Shown: positions 40,696 to 49,143, counted from the first letter of the stretch. The stretch: DNA of 62,970 bases from Candidatus Alloclostridium intestinigallinarum (GCA_904393845.1 CAJFNB010000004.1:1-62970); one strand, 5' to 3'. Numbers and translations: made by a program. The notes: generated by a model from the letters alone, not told the origin.

Positions 40696-41991
40696 ATGAA
40701 AAAAGAAGAAGCAAAAGCCGGCGCGCAATATGTCTACGACTACATCAAGGGCATAATCGACAAGACGGGTCCCAGACTGCCGGGAACGGAAGAAGAACGT
40801 CAGGGCGCGCTTCTTACTGCCGGTATTATGGAAGGTATCAGCGGCAAAAAGGCGGTTGTGGAGGAATTCGATCTGCACCCCAACGCGTCGATAGGCGCGA
40901 TTCCCGTCGTAGGTTACCTGGGTCTTATAAGTTTCGCGGTCTATTATCTTTCGCCCATAGCGACTCTCGTTCTTTCCACTCTCACGCTGCTTTTTTCCAT
41001 AGCGCAGATTTTTACATACAGCGGCTGGTTCGACTTTCTCTTTCCCAAGCGGAAATCGCAGAACGTATACACGACAATCGAACCGAAAAACGGGGAAGAG
41101 GTCAAATATACCATATGTTTTTCCGCGCACATGGATTCGTGCTGGTGCTGGAACCATTCCCTGCGCAATCCCAAGACGGCGATTCCCAAAATAGTGATAG
41201 GCGTGGTGGGTTTTGTACTGCTGATAGTAATGTCCGCAATCGCGGTGGGCATAGGTATGTACTCGTTTGCGACCATGTCCGAACTTGCGGCAAAGGGCGG
41301 ACAGTTCGACGGCATGGACATTTTCAAAATAGTCATGTATGTGCTCCCCGTGATAACCGTGCCCGGCAGCTACTGGCTTGCGGACTATCTCACGTGGGAC
41401 AAGAAAAAGGCTTCTCCCGGCGCGATGGACAACCTTTCGGGAATAGGCATTTTCCTTGCCTACGCAAACTACGTCAAGGAACACCCTGAAGTACAGCCGG
41501 AAGGGTGCAGGCTTATGTTCGCCGCCATGGGTGCGGAAGAAGCAAGCCTGAAAGGCTCGTTCGCCTTCTGCAAAAAGCATAAGGACGACGGTATGCTGGA
41601 AAATATGTACAATATCAACCTCGACTCCTTCCGCGACGACAAATACTTCTCCGCGGTAATAGGCGATTTGTGGCTGGGCAGCAGGTTCGACCGCGACCTT
41701 ATCAACCTTTCCAAAGAGGCTATGGCGGAAGCGCTGGGCGAGGACGTCACTCCCAAATGTCCGGGCGAAATGTTCAACCCCGTGGGCGGGTGCGATTCCA
41801 CTCCTTTCTGCCGCGCGGGGGTAAAGACGGTCACGCTCGTGGCGCAGAATCCCACCCTGACCGACTACTACCACACCTGCAACGACACGGTGGAAGGGCT
41901 GAGTATGTATTCGCTCGAAAAGGGGTTTGAAACCGTGGTGAACCTTGTTCCCAGGATAGACGAACTTGCGAAAAAGCAGGGTCTGAAGTAA
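40696..41991 (+). CDS. M28-family metallopeptidase with inserted transmembrane hairpins.
   Basis: It has AHMDS, GAMDNLSG and GAEEASLKGS motifs. Hydrophobic stretches lie before and between the first two motifs. The start was chosen at the ATG at 40696 (the ORF track begins at the GTG at 40687). Confidence 0.7.
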   Translation: MKKEEAKAGAQYVYDYIKGIIDKTGPRLPGTEEERQGALLTAGIMEGISGKKAVVEEFDLHPNASIGAIPVVGYLGLISFAVYYLSPIATLVLSTLTLLFSIAQIFTYSGWFDFLFPKRKSQNVYTTIEPKNGEEVKYTICFSAHMDSCWCWNHSLRNPKTAIPKIVIGVVGFVLLIVMSAIAVGIGMYSFATMSELAAKGGQFDGMDIFKIVMYVLPVITVPGSYWLADYLTWDKKKASPGAMDNLSGIGIFLAYANYVKEHPEVQPEGCRLMFAAMGAEEASLKGSFAFCKKHKDDGMLENMYNINLDSFRDDKYFSAVIGDLWLGSRFDRDLINLSKEAMAEALGEDVTPKCPGEMFNPVGGCDSTPFCRAGVKTVTLVAQNPTLTDYYHTCNDTVEGLSMYSLEKGFETVVNLVPRIDELAKKQGLK

Positions 41992-42008
41992 GCAAAGACG
42001 GCAAACGG

Positions 42009-42039
42009 CGGGGCGCGGCTTCAAGCGTCCCGTTTTGTT
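42009..42039 (+). terminator. Probable terminator.
   Basis: The stem CGGGGCGC/GCGTCCCG is followed by TTTT. Confidence 0.5.
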
Positions 42040-42099
42040 AAAGCGCGGCGCGCGGAGACTGTTTATTTTATAATAAGTGCGCGTGTAATATATTTGCTA

Positions 42100-42129
42100 T
42101 TGACAATCGCGTGATTGTTGTGATAAAAT
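42100..42129 (+). promoter_or_regulatory. Promoter TTGACA-18-TAAAAT.
   Basis: Read directly. AGGAGGG precedes the ATG at 42161. Confidence 0.6.
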
Positions 42130-42160
42130 GTAAACATTGATAAAATTCAGGAGGGTCAAT

Positions 42161-43879
42161 ATGAGCGACATCAAAAACTATTCCCTGAGTGAAATTGCTC
42201 CCGGAAGAGATTTTTCCCACTACGGCGTATCCCGCTGGGCGAGCGCCAAGGACATCAACACAAAACTCAAAGAACTTACCGATCAGAACGTATTCTGCAT
42301 CACCGATGAAGAATATGCGAATATCTGCAAGAATTATTACGACGTAAAGTGCGCAAAGTCCAAAGCCATTACCGGAGAGGCGAAGAAGTACATACCGGGC
42401 GGCGTACAGCACAACCTGGCATTCAACAAGCCTTTCCCCATGTGCATGGTTAAAGCGGAAGGCGCTTATCTGTACGACATAGACGGCAACAAGTACACCG
42501 ACTTTTTGCAGGCGGGCGGTCCCACCATTCTCGGCAGCAACTTCCCTGAAGTGCAGGAAGAGGCGATTGAGCTAATCAAGGACTGCGGCCCCGTTACCGG
42601 TCTGTTCCACGAAGCGGAACTGCTGATTGCCAAGGAAATCAACAAGCATATGCCCAATATCGAAATGTTCCGTATGCTCGGCAGCGGTACGGAATCGGTT
42701 ATGGCGGCTATCCGCGTCGCCCGTTGCGCCACTCATAAAAAGCGCGTAATCAAGATAGGCGGCGCATACCACGGCTGGTCCGACCAGATGGTTTACGGTC
42801 TGAAAATTCCCGGCACCAGGCAGTTTTTGGAAAGTTTCGGTATTCCCAACAACATCTTCTCGCTCATCGACGAAGTTCAGCCCAACAACCTTGAAATGCT
42901 GGAAGATTACCTCAAAGCCAACCAGCGCAAGGGCGGCACGGCTTGCGTAATCGTAGAACCCGTGGGTCCCGAAAGCGGCACCCGTCCCGTCGACTGGAAT
43001 TACAACAAGGGCGTGGAAATGCTCTGCCGCAAGTACGGCGCGCTGTTCATCTTCGACGAAGTCGTTACCGGCTTCCGCGTAGGTCTGGGCGGCGCACAGG
43101 GCTTGTTCGACGTGCATCCCGACCTCACCATATTCGGTAAAATCGTCGCCGGCGGCTATCCCGCGGCGGGCGGCGTAGGCGGCAAGAAGGAATACGTCAG
43201 CTGCATGGCGGCGGGCGTTGCAAGCGGCATGAAGAGGGCGTACGTGGGCGGCACGCTCGCGGCTAACCCCCTGTCCGCTCTGGCAGGTTACACCGCAATC
43301 AAGTGCATCGCCAAGCACGACGCCTGCGCTAAGGCGGGCCGCGCGGGCGACAGGCTGACCGACGGTCTTGTAAGACTGTGCAACGAATACAAGCTGCCTT
43401 ACGTGGCGTACAACCAAGGCTCCATCGTACACCTTGAGTGCACGGGCGCAATGAGTTACGACTTCTCGGCAAAGTGCCTGCTCAAGTCCCTGCTGCCTAT
43501 TTTGAAGAAGCAGGATATGATTTATGTGCGTAAGGAAGCCATGGAGATGATGGGTGCGGCTTATATGTCCCACGGCATCGTGACGCTGGCAGGTTCCAGA
43601 CTGTACACCTCTATGGCGGACACCGACGAGGTCATCGACGAGGCGTTGAACAAGTTCGAAGACGTGTTCAAACTCATCGTGGAGCGCAAACAGCCCATGG
43701 AAGTTTATGTACAGAAGTACAAGAAGGAACACGGCAAGGACAAGGAAGGCAAGGCAAAGAGAAAGGCGGACAAGAAGGCCGCGATAGCGCAGAGGAAGGC
43801 GGACGGAAAAGTCGCCGCCGCCAAGGCGAAGAAAGACCTTGTAAAACTCAAGGAAACGATGAAATCGGCAAAGTGCTGA
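42161..43879 (+). CDS. Class III (HemL/GSA-aminomutase-like) PLP aminotransferase with an N-terminal extension and a Lys-rich tail.
   Basis: It has the IPGGVQHN.. and DEVVTGFR motifs, with the PLP lysine in FGKIVAGGYP. It carries ~70 extra aa at the N-terminus and a basic KKEHGKDKEGKAKRKADKK.. C-terminus. Confidence 0.8.
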   Translation: MSDIKNYSLSEIAPGRDFSHYGVSRWASAKDINTKLKELTDQNVFCITDEEYANICKNYYDVKCAKSKAITGEAKKYIPGGVQHNLAFNKPFPMCMVKAEGAYLYDIDGNKYTDFLQAGGPTILGSNFPEVQEEAIELIKDCGPVTGLFHEAELLIAKEINKHMPNIEMFRMLGSGTESVMAAIRVARCATHKKRVIKIGGAYHGWSDQMVYGLKIPGTRQFLESFGIPNNIFSLIDEVQPNNLEMLEDYLKANQRKGGTACVIVEPVGPESGTRPVDWNYNKGVEMLCRKYGALFIFDEVVTGFRVGLGGAQGLFDVHPDLTIFGKIVAGGYPAAGGVGGKKEYVSCMAAGVASGMKRAYVGGTLAANPLSALAGYTAIKCIAKHDACAKAGRAGDRLTDGLVRLCNEYKLPYVAYNQGSIVHLECTGAMSYDFSAKCLLKSLLPILKKQDMIYVRKEAMEMMGAAYMSHGIVTLAGSRLYTSMADTDEVIDEALNKFEDVFKLIVERKQPMEVYVQKYKKEHGKDKEGKAKRKADKKAAIAQRKADGKVAAAKAKKDLVKLKETMKSAKC

Positions 43880-43955
43880 AAATAGCGTCGCGCCTCTCGC
43901 AAAGAGGGGCGCGATTACTATACGGCAAACACGGTAAAGTATAGCGGAGACATAT

Positions 43956-45488
43956 ATGAAATACATAATTGCACACGACATGGGCACGAGTTCGGACAAG
44001 GCGGTGCTCGTGGATTTCGAAGGACAGATAATTTCCTCGCAGACGGAGCCTTACCCCACTTATTATCCCGCGCCTGCGTTTGTAGAGCAGGATCCCGCCG
44101 ACTACTGGCGCGCCGTGTGCGAAGCCACTGCGAAACTGATGGATAAGACGGGCGTAAGCGCGGACGACGTCAAGGGCGTGGTTTTCTCGACGCAGGCGAT
44201 GGGCATCATTCCCATAGACAAGTACGGCAACGTGCTGCACAACAACATCACCTGGGTGGACGGCAGGGCGGAAAAACAGGCGCAGTCCATAATGAAAAAG
44301 CTGGGCGGCAAGCGCATTTTCTCGCTTGTGGCGGGCACTCCCATTATGGGCAAGGACGTGGTGGCAAAACTTATCTGGCTGAAAGAGGAAATGCCCAGCG
44401 TTTACAACGACGCCAAGTACTTCCTCGACGTGAACGGATTTTTGAAGTTCAAGTGCACGGGCGTTGCGGTGGCGGAATACTCCGGCGCTTCCTCATACGG
44501 ACTGGACACCAAGAAAAAGACGTGGCTGGGCGCGCTTAAACTCACGGGCATAGACATGAAAAAACTGCCCCCGCTCGTCAAGAGCACGGACATGATAGGA
44601 GAAGGTCTGCTGCCCGAAGCGGCAAAGGCGATGAAGCTCAATCCCGGCACTCCCGTGTTCGGCGGCTGCGACGACACGCAGGCGGCGGCGCTGGGTTCGG
44701 GCATGAACGGCGAAGGCGATATCCATATATATCTCGGCACGTCCGCGTGGGTGGGCGCGACTTCTTCCACGGAAACCAAGTTCAAGCACGGCGCGGCGGC
44801 AATACAGTCCGCGGACATAAATATGAATCTTATCGTGGGCATCACGGAAGCCGCCGGTTCCAATCTGGAATGGATTAAAAACCAGTTCTTCAAGAAGGAA
44901 GCGGAAGAGCTGGGCAGCGGCATTTACGACTATATGGACAGCGTTATCGAGCATATCCCCGCGGGCAGCGAATACCTTATCTGCACGCCGTGGATGTTGG
45001 GCGAAAGGTGCCCCGTTTCTTCCACTACAACGAGGAGCACGCTTTTCAATATCGACCCGCGCCACACGCGCGAACACCTCATGCGCGCCGTGTACGAGGG
45101 CATAGGCTACAACCTCAGGTGGATTCTGGAAAACTTCAAAAAGGACTACGGCTTCGGCGGCAGAAAGTTCAGGATAATCGGCGGCGGAGCCATGAATAAG
45201 GCGTGGATGCAGATGATTGCGGACATCACGGACAACGAGTTCGCCGTGGTGCAGAACACGCGCAACGCGGGCGCTTTGGGCGCGGCGATCATCGCGCTTA
45301 TAGGTCTGGGCGAAATAAAGGGCTTTTCCGAGGTCAAGCGGTTTGTCAAGGAGGAAAAGACTTACCGTCCCAATCCGGCGAACAGGCACGTTTACGACGA
45401 ACAGTTCGCCAACTACAAGCGCATCTATTACAGCCTGAACAAGGCGTACAAACTTGCAAACTCAAAGAGATTCGAAGGAGACGAGTGA
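43956..45488 (+). CDS. FGGY-family carbohydrate kinase.
   Basis: It has the N-terminal DMGTSSDKAVL and the C-terminal GGGAMNKAWMQMIADI FGGY signatures. Confidence 0.85.
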   Translation: MKYIIAHDMGTSSDKAVLVDFEGQIISSQTEPYPTYYPAPAFVEQDPADYWRAVCEATAKLMDKTGVSADDVKGVVFSTQAMGIIPIDKYGNVLHNNITWVDGRAEKQAQSIMKKLGGKRIFSLVAGTPIMGKDVVAKLIWLKEEMPSVYNDAKYFLDVNGFLKFKCTGVAVAEYSGASSYGLDTKKKTWLGALKLTGIDMKKLPPLVKSTDMIGEGLLPEAAKAMKLNPGTPVFGGCDDTQAAALGSGMNGEGDIHIYLGTSAWVGATSSTETKFKHGAAAIQSADINMNLIVGITEAAGSNLEWIKNQFFKKEAEELGSGIYDYMDSVIEHIPAGSEYLICTPWMLGERCPVSSTTTRSTLFNIDPRHTREHLMRAVYEGIGYNLRWILENFKKDYGFGGRKFRIIGGGAMNKAWMQMIADITDNEFAVVQNTRNAGALGAAIIALIGLGEIKGFSEVKRFVKEEKTYRPNPANRHVYDEQFANYKRIYYSLNKAYKLANSKRFEGDE

Positions 45489-45489
45489 T

Positions 45490-46083
45490 ATGAACGAAAA
45501 ACTCAAAGCATCCGTACTGCAATATTTCGACAGACTTAGGGAATACGGTCTGCACGGCGAGGGCGATTCCGTATCCGTCCGCACGGAAGGCGGTATGCTG
45601 TTTGTGGACAACAGCCGCGAAGTAAAATTCGTAAAAGCGGGCGAGGCTAAGGGAGAAGCCGCCCTCCACGAGGGAATATACGCGCAAACGGACGCCGCCG
45701 CGGTGGTGCACGCCCACCCCGACTATGTCAGCGCGGTGGCAAAAGCGGGCGTTACTATTCCCGCCGTCATCGACGATATGGCGCAGATAGTGGGTCCCAC
45801 CTGTCGCACGGTAGAGGGGAAGGAAGCCGCCGCAAAGGAGCTGAAAAAGCGCAATTCCTGCCTTATGAAGGGCGACGGCGCGGTGACTACGGGCAGAACG
45901 CTGAACGAGGCGTTCACCTGCATGATGGTGCTGCAAAAGGCGGCAATCTGCTTTGTGAGCGCAAGCGTGCTGGGCGGAAACGTGGTCATAAACGGGCTGG
46001 AAGCGCGTCTTATGCGTTTTGTGTACAAGAAGAAATACAGCAAGATAAATACGGAAAACAATATGGAAAGGGAGGGCAAATAA
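45490..46083 (+). CDS. Class II aldolase/adducin-domain protein, degenerate paralog.
   Basis: It has VVHAHPDY (two His ligands), but the third-His position reads KGDG instead of NHG. The start is 1 nt after the kinase stop. Confidence 0.7.
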   Translation: MNEKLKASVLQYFDRLREYGLHGEGDSVSVRTEGGMLFVDNSREVKFVKAGEAKGEAALHEGIYAQTDAAAVVHAHPDYVSAVAKAGVTIPAVIDDMAQIVGPTCRTVEGKEAAAKELKKRNSCLMKGDGAVTTGRTLNEAFTCMMVLQKAAICFVSASVLGGNVVINGLEARLMRFVYKKKYSKINTENNMEREGK

Positions 46084-46746
46084 ATGAGCTGGACCAAGGA
46101 AGAAGAAGTAAAGCTGCGCCAAGTGGTGAAGGACAGCGGCGTTAAACTGCTCAAAGAAAACCTCGTGCAGGGCACGTGGGGCAATATGGCGCAAAGGCTG
46201 GATTCCGAATATATGCTCGTGACCCCCACGGGGCTTGACTACGAAGCGCTCTCTCCCGAAGATATGCCCGTGGTGAGCATAGCCGACCCGTCCGTGTGGC
46301 GCGACGGCAAAAAGCCCACTTCCGAGCGCAAGATTCACGCTTACCTCATGCTCAACCGCTCCGAGATAAACGCGACCATCCACTCGCACCCTTATTACGG
46401 CTCCATTTTCGCTTCGGCAAGAAAGGAACTGCCGGAAGAGGCGATGACGGAAGAGGAAAAGAAACTGCTCGGCGGAAGTATCCGCGTGGGCGCATACGGA
46501 CTTCCCGGCACGAAAAAGCTCAAAGAAGGCACCGTAAAGGCCATGGAAGGGCGCAACGCCTGCTTTATGGCGAACCACGGCGTTTTCTGCGCGGGCAAGG
46601 ATATGGAAGAGGCGTTCGAGATAATCCGCTGCCTTGAAAGGGTGTGCAAGAGATATATCGAACAGCTGACCGTAAAAGCCACGGGCGCAAAGGAATATTC
46701 GGACGGGCTTTTGTTCGACTATTTCATCAAAAAGTGCGGCAGATAA
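46084..46746 (+). CDS. Class II aldolase/adducin-family enzyme (FucA/AraD-like), canonical.
   Basis: It has GTWGNMAQR, PTSERKIH, IHSHPYY and MANHGVFCAG motifs. The start immediately follows the upstream stop. Confidence 0.8.
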   Translation: MSWTKEEEVKLRQVVKDSGVKLLKENLVQGTWGNMAQRLDSEYMLVTPTGLDYEALSPEDMPVVSIADPSVWRDGKKPTSERKIHAYLMLNRSEINATIHSHPYYGSIFASARKELPEEAMTEEEKKLLGGSIRVGAYGLPGTKKLKEGTVKAMEGRNACFMANHGVFCAGKDMEEAFEIIRCLERVCKRYIEQLTVKATGAKEYSDGLLFDYFIKKCGR

Positions 46747-47123
46747 TTTCGGAAAAACAGGCGCGCGAGCTGAATCCTCTCGTGCTGGCGTTCGTGGGCG
46801 ACGGAGTGCAGACGCTTTACGTGCGCACCCGCCTCGCCCTGGAATCGCACGCCAAGGCGGGCGTACTCCACACGCAGGCGGCGGCGGTCGTAAACGCCGG
46901 CGCGCAGGCGCGGAGCGCGGAAGAACTGCTCCCTTATTTTACGGAGGAGGAAGCGGGCATTTACCGCCGCGCGCGCAACAACCATTCCGCCCACCGCGCA
47001 AAAAACGCGGACGAGGGCGACTATCACAAGGCCAGCGGGCTGGAAGCCGTGATAGGCTTTCTGTACCTCACCGGCCGGGACGAAAGACTGGAATATATTC
47101 TGAAAGCCTGCTGCAAGCGGTAA
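46734..47123 (+). CDS. mrnC: Mini-ribonuclease III.
   Basis: It has LAFVGDGV, RRARN, KASGLEAVIGFLYLTG motifs. There is no in-frame ATG, so the GTG at 46734, which overlaps the upstream stop, is proposed. Confidence 0.7.
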   Translation: MRQIISEKQARELNPLVLAFVGDGVQTLYVRTRLALESHAKAGVLHTQAAAVVNAGAQARSAEELLPYFTEEEAGIYRRARNNHSAHRAKNADEGDYHKASGLEAVIGFLYLTGRDERLEYILKACCKR

Positions 47124-47133
47124 AGGAGATATT

Positions 47134-47886
47134 ATGCCTCAGGTAAAACCACACGTAGTACTGCTTACTTATACGAACAATCCGGCGCAGACGATAGCCA
47201 TGTCGGCAAAGCTGTGCTATTCCGACGCCACCATTGCCGACCTCAAAAAGGGCGTGGACGAGAGCGACGTGGGCAAATTTTTGTCCAGGCTCGTCACGAT
47301 GGGGCATCTTTCCCCGTTCGAGCACGCCTCTTTCACTTTCGGGATAGAGGGCGTTTCGCGCAGTTTTCTGGCGCAGGTGACAAGGCACAGGATAGCTTCT
47401 TTTTCCGTAAAATCACAGCGTTATGTGGACGCTAACAAAAATGGCGAATTCAATTACGTAATTCCCCCCGCCATAAGCGCATTGGGCAGCGTGGCGGAAG
47501 AAGAGTACAAAGACCAGATGGCGCAGATGCACGCCTGGTACTGCAAATGGCAGGAAAGACTGGGCGGAGCGTGTGAAAAATCCAACGAGGACGCGCGTTT
47601 CGTACTGCCCAACGCGGCGGAAACCAAGATGACGATGACCATGAACGTGCGCGAACTCATGCACTTTTTCACCGTGCGCTGCTGTAACCGCGCGCAATGG
47701 GAGATACGCGAAGTGGCGTGGCGTATGCTGGAAGAAGTGCTCAAAGTCGCCCCCGAACTGTTCGTGACGGCGGGTCCGTCCTGCGTGCGCGGCGGTTGCA
47801 GCGAGGGTAAAATGACCTGCGCAAAGCCCGATGAAGTAAGAGCAAGGCGCAGGGCGCTTACGGAAAAGATTGCGGAGAAGAAGTAA
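47134..47886 (+). CDS. thyX: FAD-dependent thymidylate synthase.
   Basis: It has the ThyX motif RHRIASFSVKSQRY. Confidence 0.9.
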   Translation: MPQVKPHVVLLTYTNNPAQTIAMSAKLCYSDATIADLKKGVDESDVGKFLSRLVTMGHLSPFEHASFTFGIEGVSRSFLAQVTRHRIASFSVKSQRYVDANKNGEFNYVIPPAISALGSVAEEEYKDQMAQMHAWYCKWQERLGGACEKSNEDARFVLPNAAETKMTMTMNVRELMHFFTVRCCNRAQWEIREVAWRMLEEVLKVAPELFVTAGPSCVRGGCSEGKMTCAKPDEVRARRRALTEKIAEKK

Positions 47887-48602
47887 TGTTACTTGAAGGA
47901 AAGAACGCCGTGCGCGAGCACCTTTCGGCGGGCGGAAAACTCACCCGTCTTTACCTGCAAAAGGGGCTTCACGGCACGGAAGACATAATAGATAAAGCCA
48001 AAACCGCGGGCGCGCGCATAGTAATGTGCGACAAAAAGGAGTTGGACAAGCTGTGCGGAGGGGAAAAACACCGCGGCGTCGTGGGCGCGGCGGACGAGTA
48101 TTCCTACTGCACGGTGGAAGACATAATAAAGGCGGCAAAGGACAAGGGCGAAAAGCTGTTCATGCTCATTCTGGACGGCATAGAAGACCCGCACAACCTG
48201 GGCAGTATAGTCAGGGTTGCGGAATGTTCGGGCGTGCACGGCATTGTCATTCCCAAAAGAAGGGCGGTAGGCGTGAACGCGACTGTGGTAAAGGTATCCG
48301 CGGGCGCGACGGCTTACGTCAGAATAGCGGCGGTGAACAACGTCAACGACGTCATACGCAAGCTGAAAGACAATTTCGTGAACGTGTACTGCGCGGATAT
48401 GGACGGCAGGGACGTCTATACCACCAATCTTACGGAAGATCTCGCGCTTGTCATAGGCAGCGAAGGTTTCGGCGTAAAGCCGCTCACCGCCAGGCTGTGC
48501 GACGGCGCCGTTTCCCTGCCGCAGAAGGGCAGGATAAATTCGCTCAACGCCTCCGTGGCGTGCGGCGTGCTTTGCTATGAAGTGCTCAGGCAAAGGAGAT
48601 AG
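47886..48602 (+). CDS. rlmB: TrmH/SpoU-family 23S rRNA 2'-O-methyltransferase.
   Basis: It has LDGIEDPHNLGSIVR. Its position next to mrnC and sigH matches Bacillus yacO. Confidence 0.8.
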   Translation: MLLEGKNAVREHLSAGGKLTRLYLQKGLHGTEDIIDKAKTAGARIVMCDKKELDKLCGGEKHRGVVGAADEYSYCTVEDIIKAAKDKGEKLFMLILDGIEDPHNLGSIVRVAECSGVHGIVIPKRRAVGVNATVVKVSAGATAYVRIAAVNNVNDVIRKLKDNFVNVYCADMDGRDVYTTNLTEDLALVIGSEGFGVKPLTARLCDGAVSLPQKGRINSLNASVACGVLCYEVLRQRR

Positions 48603-48603
48603 T

Positions 48604-49143
48604 ATGAAAGAAGAAGAGCTCATCGCGCGCGCTTCTTCGGGCGACAGCCTTGCCATGGAAGAACTGCTCACCGCCTATATGGGTATGGTAAAGGCGGTGG
48701 CGCGGCAATATTACATTGTGGGCGCGACCTGCGAGGACGTATCGCAGGAAGGAATGATAGGGCTTTACAAGGCGGTCGTCACATACAAGAGGGAAAAGGG
48801 CAGATTTTCCGCGTACGCGTACGCGTGTATAAAGGCGGCGGTGATAGACGCGGTAAAGGCGGCTTCGCGCGAAAAGAACAAGGCGCTCAACACGTCCGTA
48901 CCCCTTGAAAACACGGTGGGACTTGTAAGCGACGTGGATATTACGGTGAACCTTGTGGGCGGAGAGCTTATGGCAAGGATAAAAAGCCGCCTTTCGCCGG
49001 CGGAAGAGGAGATATTTTCCATGTGGGCGGAAGGCATGAGTTATGCGGAAATAGCCGAAGAGCTGGGCAAAACGGTGAAAAACGTGGATAACGCCGTCCA
49101 GCGCATAAAGAAAAAGGCGAAAGCAGTGATAAAGGAAGGCTGA
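48604..49143 (+). CDS. sigH: Sporulation-initiation sigma factor SigH.
   Basis: It has QEGMIGLYKAV and NAVQRIKKKA, resembling B. subtilis SigH. AAAGGAG precedes the ATG at 48604. Confidence 0.8.
   Translation: MKEEELIARASSGDSLAMEELLTAYMGMVKAVARQYYIVGATCEDVSQEGMIGLYKAVVTYKREKGRFSAYAYACIKAAVIDAVKAASREKNKALNTSVPLENTVGLVSDVDITVNLVGGELMARIKSRLSPAEEEIFSMWAEGMSYAEIAEELGKTVKNVDNAVQRIKKKAKAVIKEG

Follow-up and report, generated by a model that had tools for sequence, protein, structure and literature searches.

In the catabolic pathways for fucose, rhamnose and 5-deoxyribose (FucI–FucK–FucA, RhaA–RhaB–RhaD and DrdK–DrdI–DrdA), a kinase of the FGGY or another type acts together with a zinc aldolase of the FucA fold, and the expected products are dihydroxyacetone phosphate (DHAP) and an aldehyde. 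Likewise, a kinase and proteins of the class II aldolase fold are encoded, together with an aminotransferase, by a four-gene module at positions 42100-46746 of a stretch of DNA from Candidatus Alloclostridium intestinigallinarum (GCA_904393845.1 CAJFNB010000004.1:1-62970), the whole of which, 62,970 nucleotides, is referred to here as the window. The module lies on the plus strand and consists of a class III pyridoxal phosphate (PLP) aminotransferase resembling glutamate-1-semialdehyde aminomutase (GSAM) (AT, 42161-43879, 572 aa, Aminotran_3), an FGGY carbohydrate kinase resembling XylB and GntK (KIN, 43956-45488, 510 aa, FGGY_N and FGGY_C), a degenerate class II aldolase-fold subunit that is probably auxiliary (ALD1, 45490-46083, 197 aa, Aldolase_II) and a FucA/DrdA-like class II aldolase subunit that is probably catalytic (ALD2, 46084-46746, 220 aa, Aldolase_II).

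The four genes are a conserved unit, and the module that they form is real, widespread and uncharacterized; no curated family model assigns a specific function to any of its proteins. We see about an even chance that it serves the catabolism or salvage of a compound with a 2-amino-1,3,4-triol head group, which would be converted to DHAP and an aldehyde.

Conservation and components of the module

Homologues of AT number about 7,900 and were found in more than 560 species genomes. Neighbourhoods were counted in the best 80 AT loci from other species, with overlapping categories: an aldolase stands next to AT in 49 of the 80 loci, an FGGY kinase in 47 and an ALD1-like sequence in 46. Near AT, a TetR regulator is found in 30 loci, a GtrA-family membrane protein in 19, mrnC (3' of ALD2) in 15, an SNF transporter in four and a class-3-like aldehyde dehydrogenase (ALDH) in two. 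In an even sample of the class, AT is present in 12 of 399 genomes, eight of which carry an ALD1-like gene within 3 kb of it. Since the ALD1 profile search over these 399 genomes also scores ordinary class II aldolases, the co-occurrence of ALD1 with AT was judged by adjacency in the 12 AT-positive genomes. The original prediction treated the four genes as belonging together, and their orthologues are indeed co-localized in many other genomes.

The arrangement of the genes varies among the loci. In Christensenellales the order is M28 .. AT-KIN-ALD1-ALD2-mrnC, in which M28 denotes a metallopeptidase gene. Elsewhere the order is TetR-KIN'-ALD2~ALD1-GtrA-AT (the tilde marking a fusion, and KIN' being only 30% identical to KIN), followed by ALDH, a short-chain dehydrogenase/reductase (SDR) or SNF, or it is GtrA-TetR-AT-KIN-ALD1-ALD2, or TetR-AT-ALD1-ALD2 without a kinase. 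TetR-AT also stands alone, and the genomes of this type that were checked carry a fused aldolase and a 35%-identical kinase elsewhere. The constant core is AT plus the aldolase, whereas the kinase slot is filled across loci by two or three FGGY lineages with a mutual identity of only about 30%. The welding of the module to mrnC-thyX-rlmB-sigH that had been proposed is present here, but this link is specific to the Christensenellales lineage (15 of the 80 loci) and is not a property of the module.

Metagenome contigs, most of them with 66-71% G+C, carry the order KIN-ALDa-AT-ALDb. Eight such contigs were read; the second aldolase gene was found in four of them, a major facilitator superfamily (MFS) transporter in five, TetR in three, DUF2147 in three and ALDH in two. 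Proteins in which Aldolase_II and Aminotran_3 are fused are on record in the databases (P0185, P0187, P0313 and P0223); in P0187, the His-Tyr that is canonical for FucA is present in the aldolase half. The fusion is known solely from these four database proteins; among the metagenome loci retrieved with P0185, the aldolase gene and the AT gene are adjacent but separate in L124 and L126, where their boundaries were read.

Focusing on the aldolase, ALD2 matches PF00596 with 144 bits, and its best solved relatives are FucA from S. pneumoniae (4c24) and, as the second-best distinct structure, 6btd (an entry titled 'fuculose phosphate aldolase'), which we take to be DrdA from B. thuringiensis. Compared with E. 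coli FucA, ALD2 keeps N29, T43, S72, E73, H92, H94 and H155 and has Thr at S71, and it is devoid of Y113 and of the C-terminal tail. The match of ALD1 to the same family reaches 62 bits and covers profile positions 46-179 only, which is the C-terminal two thirds. In an alignment of 13 orthologues, a DDMxQIxG loop and, at the C terminus, the motif YxKKYSK are invariant in the ALD1 family, and neither the HxH metal motif nor the residues of the FucA metal and phosphate sites are conserved; the first Asp of the loop aligns with Tyr113 of FucA. Tyr113 and the C-terminal tail of FucA reach into the active site of the neighbouring subunit. Because these elements act across subunits, and because ALD1 keeps the loop and the tail whereas ALD2 keeps the metal and phosphate site, the two proteins appear to be complementary halves. 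From this comparison of residues, ALD1 and ALD2 most likely form one heteromeric aldolase, with ALD2 as the catalytic and ALD1 as the auxiliary subunit. Thus, the two back-to-back class II aldolase proteins that had been predicted were rightly placed as to spacing and fold, but they are most likely one enzyme and not two aldolases.

Fusions of the type ALD1~ALD2 (about 449 aa) are common, and fusions in the reverse order, ALD2~ALD1 (339-419 aa), are also found; in the alignment, a homomeric relative (L110) carries both sets of motifs in one chain. ALD1 and ALD2 are the only Aldolase_II genes in the host genome. The FucA model TIGR01086 gives 73 bits, with a cut-off of 400; ALD2 has no Tyr at position 113, where ALD1 has Asp-Asp. 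The AraD model TIGR00760 gives 65 bits (cut-off 389) and the MtnB model TIGR03328 gives 64 bits (cut-off 137). No match was found in the host genome for AraA (AraA_N) or for the IF-2B-type isomerase of MtnA and DrdI (PF01008). A role in arabinose catabolism as AraD was considered and rejected, since the cut-off of TIGR00760 is missed and the genome is without AraA. In one genome, in which AT stands elsewhere with TetR, the gene directly 5' of a stand-alone ALD2~ALD1 fusion encodes an AI-2E family transporter (L106:1577-4188).

AT matches PF00202 with 181 bits (gathering cut-off 30.5), and the Schiff-base Lys in FGKIVAGG and the Asp facing N1 of PLP, which occupy the columns of K265 and D237 of E. 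coli HemL, are invariant in the alignment of its family. The alignment with E. coli HemL also gives AT an N-terminal extension of about 65 residues, which is structured in the AlphaFold model; a class III PLP enzyme of the GSAM type with about 70 extra N-terminal residues had been predicted, and this description is borne out. The best fold matches of the model (pLDDT 93.5) are GSAM and D-phenylglycine aminotransferase, with an omega-transaminase also among the matches; the GntE model scores 233 bits on AT, and a look-up in the ESM Atlas returned class III aminotransferase clusters only. At the other end of the protein, a Lys/Ala-rich C-terminal tail of about 60 aa (residues ~513-572; 43699-43879) is modelled with high confidence as one long helix, for which membrane binding and nucleic-acid binding are possibilities. 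This tail occurs in the Christensenellales-type ATs, with a variant in L033; the common forms of 498 aa, many of them standing with TetR, do not have it.

The scores of AT fall well below the thresholds of the HemL models (265.3 bits for TIGR00713, cut-off 527.3; 285.6 bits for PRK00062, cut-off 398). Ser29, Arg32 and Glu406, in the numbering of the Synechococcus enzyme, are substrate-binding residues of GSAM (PMC7338781). In the alignment with E. coli HemL, the substrate-loop motif GGVNSPVRAF is replaced throughout the AT family by an invariant GGVQHNLAFN, and no Glu is found at the position of Glu406. The host genome (1.86 Mb, 97.75% complete), which judging by its closest relatives is a Christensenellaceae-like metagenome-assembled genome, gave a best match of 18.6 bits in a search for HemA with TIGR01035 (cut-off 209.6). 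Whether AT is a bona fide HemL serving a complete C5 pathway had been raised together with the original prediction, and this assignment was rejected, since every HemL cut-off is missed, the loop with Ser29 and Arg32 and the residue Glu406 are not conserved and the genome is without HemA; on these sequence criteria, AT is not a true HemL.

The second gene encodes an FGGY kinase as predicted, both FGGY_N (171.4 bits) and FGGY_C (98 bits) being over their cut-offs. KIN is closest to the XylB and GntK models and less similar to the 1-kinases FucK and RhaB, and its score with the XylB model TIGR01312 is 315 bits, which is under the cut-off of 380. An ordinary xylose role was rejected, since this cut-off is missed and the genome is without XylA, for which no match was found. 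The host genome has three clear FGGY genes, the two others lying away from the module. One of these two, a second unassigned XylB-like FGGY kinase on contig C2 (L091:3883-5439, minus strand), scores 230 bits, also under the cut-off, and stands near a sulfatase-like gene and murC.

Proposed pathway and alternative explanations

In the proposed pathway, KIN would phosphorylate the primary hydroxyl at C1 of the substrate, and AT would then replace the amine at C2 by a ketone, with a 2-oxo acid as the acceptor of the amino group, and would leave an intermediate similar to a ketose 1-phosphate. AT would thereby fill the role of the aldose–ketose isomerase of the fucose and rhamnose pathways. Finally, the heteromeric zinc aldolase would cut the C3–C4 bond, giving DHAP and an aldehyde, with ALD2 supplying the metal and phosphate site and ALD1 supplying, in trans, the C-terminal tail and the DDMxQIxG loop that stands where FucA has Tyr113.

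A route from an amino-triol is favoured for three reasons: no isomerase recurs in the neighbourhoods, AT occupies the slot that an isomerase has in the fucose, rhamnose, arabinose and xylose operons, and an analogous cluster exists with a different enzyme in this slot. In about 100 loci, no sugar isomerase was found among the annotated recurring neighbour families. In the analogous cluster (L111:6778-13075), an APH-family kinase and an ALD1~ALD2 fusion are encoded together with a SorC regulator, a Pyr_redox_2 protein and a flavoprotein that has a BFD domain and is similar to glycerol-3-phosphate oxidase. The cluster appears to be a counterpart of the module for a hydroxyl compound, in which the flavoenzyme replaces AT; by analogy, oxidation at C2 of a phosphorylated compound would replace transamination, and in either case a 2-ketone beside a phosphorylated C1 would be obtained. 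This flavoenzyme, together with the recorded aldolase–AT fusions, also favours the order kinase, transaminase, aldolase. The chemistry of the original prediction, namely conversion of the amine to a ketone, phosphorylation and aldol cleavage, therefore remains the best fit in view of the missing isomerase and the analogous cluster, but its order may have to be revised, with the kinase probably acting first.

The substrate could be an amino-polyol or an amino-alditol; phytosphingosine or another sphingoid long-chain base is one candidate. An aldehyde product would agree with the presence of ALDH and SDR genes next to the module; class-3-like ALDH genes are found near the module in gut or gut-type genomes (L067 and L076) and in metagenome contigs with 66-67% G+C (L130 and L134). 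An amphiphilic substrate, for example phytosphingosine, is hinted at by TetR, GtrA, the membrane M28 protein, alpha/beta-hydrolases and the class-3-type ALDH, and a soluble one by the MFS or SNF transporters that are found near the module in several arrangements. That gut, rumen and soil bacteria degrade phytosphingosine-type bases from plant, fungal or host sphingolipids in the manner of sugars, giving DHAP and a fatty aldehyde, is a tentative and rather improbable extension of the proposal. If it holds, GtrA, the membrane M28 hydrolase and the Lys-rich tail of AT would deliver the lipid.

Several points weigh against the proposed catabolic pathway. The substrate class, the reaction order, the direction and the products are inferred from genes and models. 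Judging by the sequence models, KIN is nearest to XylB and GntK, which act on a hydroxyl distal to the carbonyl, and with an Asp-Asp loop in place of Tyr113 the aldolase could carry out a chemistry other than simple retro-aldol cleavage. Pairs of ALD1 and ALD2, as well as the homomeric form, also occur without AT and beside housekeeping genes, and many genomes have TetR-AT alone with the aldolase and the kinase elsewhere, so that AT may have a stand-alone role. No regulator or transporter gene is present in the window, and essential housekeeping genes stand on the same strand and probably in the same transcript as the module, an unusual setting for the genes of a nutrient pathway.

Among the alternatives, the one that survives best is a coupling of aldehyde and amine metabolism, in which KIN and the aldolase would process an ordinary ketose to DHAP and an aldehyde such as lactaldehyde, glycolaldehyde or acetaldehyde, and AT would aminate this aldehyde; in the reverse variant, a primary amine such as ethanolamine would give the aldehyde and the aldolase would join it to DHAP. 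The aldolase–AT fusions on record and the constant adjacency of the two genes suggest consecutive steps, several of the characterized GSAM-like relatives are aldehyde/amine transaminases (the GntE model and the omega-transaminase fold match belong here) and TetR-AT alone is common. However, an isomerase to supply the ketose is missing both from the annotated recurring neighbours and from the host genome, which is without XylA, AraA and IF-2B, the kinase would have no role in the assimilatory direction, and in L067, L130 and L134 ALDH and AT would be redundant for one aldehyde. This explanation is considered unlikely.

The module may also run in the direction of biosynthesis, with DHAP and an aldehyde being condensed and then aminated to an amino-polyol for an envelope or lipid head group, the GtrA-like proteins handling a lipid-linked product. 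The frequent adjacency of GtrA, the overlapping junctions with housekeeping genes on the same strand behind a strong promoter, and an identity of 70-75% between ATs across diverged lineages would agree with such a function. On the other hand, the kinase would be superfluous if DHAP brings the phosphate, no glycosyltransferase or nucleotidyltransferase recurs in the neighbourhoods, GtrA was not found in the host genome, and control by TetR, importer-type MFS and SNF transporters and nearby ALDH are a catabolic signature. We regard the biosynthetic direction as quite improbable.

A variant of the salvage of S-adenosylmethionine by-products (5-methylthioribose or 5-deoxyribose), in which AT would be the final transaminase and ALD1/ALD2 would have the role of a DrdA/Ald2-type aldolase or of an MtnB-type dehydratase, appears slightly less probable still. 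It draws on the resemblance of ALD2 to 6btd and on a sister AT clade with 46% identity, which is found in MFS-TetR-FGGY kinase-AT-RuBisCO-like protein clusters (L141:8442-9785; also L140, L142 and L143). The RuBisCO-like protein of these clusters has its closest match in the MtnW enolase 2zvi (E 4e-71); nearby genes encode a class II aldolase-fold protein, an amidohydrolase and an uncharacterized protein of 357 aa. However, these clusters are a different pathway, likewise without an assigned role, and a clade at 46% identity may differ in function; no RuBisCO-like protein was seen in the loci of the AT clade proper. Further points against the variant are that the host genome has no IF-2B isomerase (MtnA/DrdI) and that the MtnB score is under its cut-off. 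Finally, the idea that AT is the HemL of a haem pathway, standing beside sugar genes by accident, can practically be discarded: the curated models with the highest scores and the best fold matches are indeed those of GSAM, but against this stand every HemL cut-off (265 of 527 bits), the altered substrate loop and Glu406 position, a nearly complete genome without HemA and a conserved linkage to the aldolase and the kinase.

Promoter, gene junctions and neighbouring genes

The promoter that had been predicted ahead of the four genes was located at 42100-42129 (plus strand) as a sigma-70-type site, TTGACA-18-TAAAAT, with an extended -10 TG and 11 of 12 positions matching. Since 11 such sites per 10 kb are found in the real sequence and 6.5 +/- 2.5 in shuffles, the match taken by itself is weak; its placement fits, as the site lies 32 nt 5' of the ATG at 42161. 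This ATG, preceded by AGGAGG-N6, is the start of AT, and not the TTG at 42137 that opens the reading frame. The spacing is 1 nt between the stop of KIN and the ATG of ALD1 at 45490, and 0 nt between ALD1 and the ATG of ALD2 at 46084. Long antisense reading frames over AT and the aldolase genes (for example 42572-43999, minus strand) were treated as shadow frames of the sense genes, which have strong family matches.

Between AT and KIN, a GC-rich hairpin (43887-43915, plus strand) has a 12-bp stem and a 5-nt loop and is without a U tract. The folding free energy of 43872-43955 is -32.5 kcal/mol (z -4.9), and none of 200 shuffles is as stable; the hairpin may cause partial termination or give the parts of the mRNA different stabilities. 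The 3' end of ALD2 contains a weak terminator-like site (46699-46718), and no Rfam match to a riboswitch or known RNA was found in 41900-47200. The claim that the block runs into mrnC without a terminator thus stands as far as the same-strand run is concerned, but is qualified by the strong AT/KIN hairpin and by the weak site at the end of ALD2.

The probable start of mrnC is GTG 46734, which is in frame, lies 5' of the conserved N-terminal region and overlaps the ALD2 stop at 46744-46746, in agreement with the overlap originally described. mrnC encodes a Mini-III RNase (46734-47123, Ribonuclease_3 domain, 73 bits) and is followed by the housekeeping genes thyX, rlmB and a SigH-like sigma factor gene (47134-49143), all on the plus strand and identified with family models. 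thyX reaches 196 bits with TIGR02170 (cut-off 88), RlmB reaches 205 bits with TIGR00186 (cut-off 160), and the SigH models give about 133 bits on the sigma factor gene, which is under the cut-off.

The upstream neighbour (40696-41991, plus strand) encodes an M28 metallopeptidase (Peptidase_M28, 72 bits) with hydrophobic inserts at residues ~64-107 and ~159-195. In 19 of the 80 loci, and also in L009 and L010, a homologue with 25-88% identity stands no more than 2.5 kb from AT, with both orientations occurring. Because the adjacency is kept where the M28 identity is 25% and that of AT is over 70%, a functional link is suggested; perhaps the amine substrate occurs as an N-acyl or peptide conjugate, from which the M28 protein would release it.

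Comparison with known systems

Our literature search retrieved no paper describing the cassette, and the sole bacterial route for sphingoid bases that it found is the sphBCD proposal in Pseudomonas. AT has its best sequence and structure matches among HemL and GSAM-like transaminases (D-phenylglycine aminotransferase, GntE and beta-transaminases), with which it shares the fold and the PLP-binding residues. It differs from HemL in the extra N-terminal domain and further insertions, besides the changed binding region for glutamate 1-semialdehyde and the missing HemA partner. In terms of the reaction, aminotransferases for DHAP/serinol phosphate and fructose 6-phosphate (RtxA, Cj1437, and GabT1 from 1-deoxynojirimycin biosynthesis) convert a 2-keto sugar phosphate into a 2-amino-alditol phosphate and back. 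For AT, this reaction is proposed to run in the opposite direction. These enzymes are biosynthetic and are not known to have a link to FGGY kinases or class II aldolases.

The sphingosine-responsive sphBCD genes of Pseudomonas aeruginosa have been proposed to cleave a sphingoid base into a small polar fragment and a long-chain aldehyde (PMC3900636). However, their products, a cytochrome, a flavin oxidoreductase and a PLP enzyme similar to threonine aldolase, are unrelated to the enzymes of the module, the regulator is of the AraC type and the proposed product is glycine instead of DHAP (PMC3900636). A sphingoid-base route through the module, if real, would be unrelated both to this proposal and to the eukaryotic sphingosine-1-phosphate lyase route.

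The carriers of the module comprise hundreds of species, among them gut and rumen Clostridia, including the health-associated Christensenellaceae, as well as soil bacteria. If the proposed pathway is correct, it would feed an amine-bearing polyol, perhaps dietary or host sphingoid bases, into glycolysis at DHAP, and the class II aldolase active site would be divided between a catalytic and a degenerate subunit, which would be of interest for enzyme evolution and for aldolase biocatalysis. Compared with the fucose, rhamnose and 5-deoxyribose pathways, the module has a PLP aminotransferase in the slot of the isomerase, its kinase is similar to XylB and GntK instead of FucK and RhaB, and its aldolase is split, or fused, as a catalytic and an auxiliary half. 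Whereas FucA is a homotetramer of identical subunits, the aldolase of the module would consist of two different subunits, with an Asp-Asp loop supplied by ALD1 in place of Tyr113.

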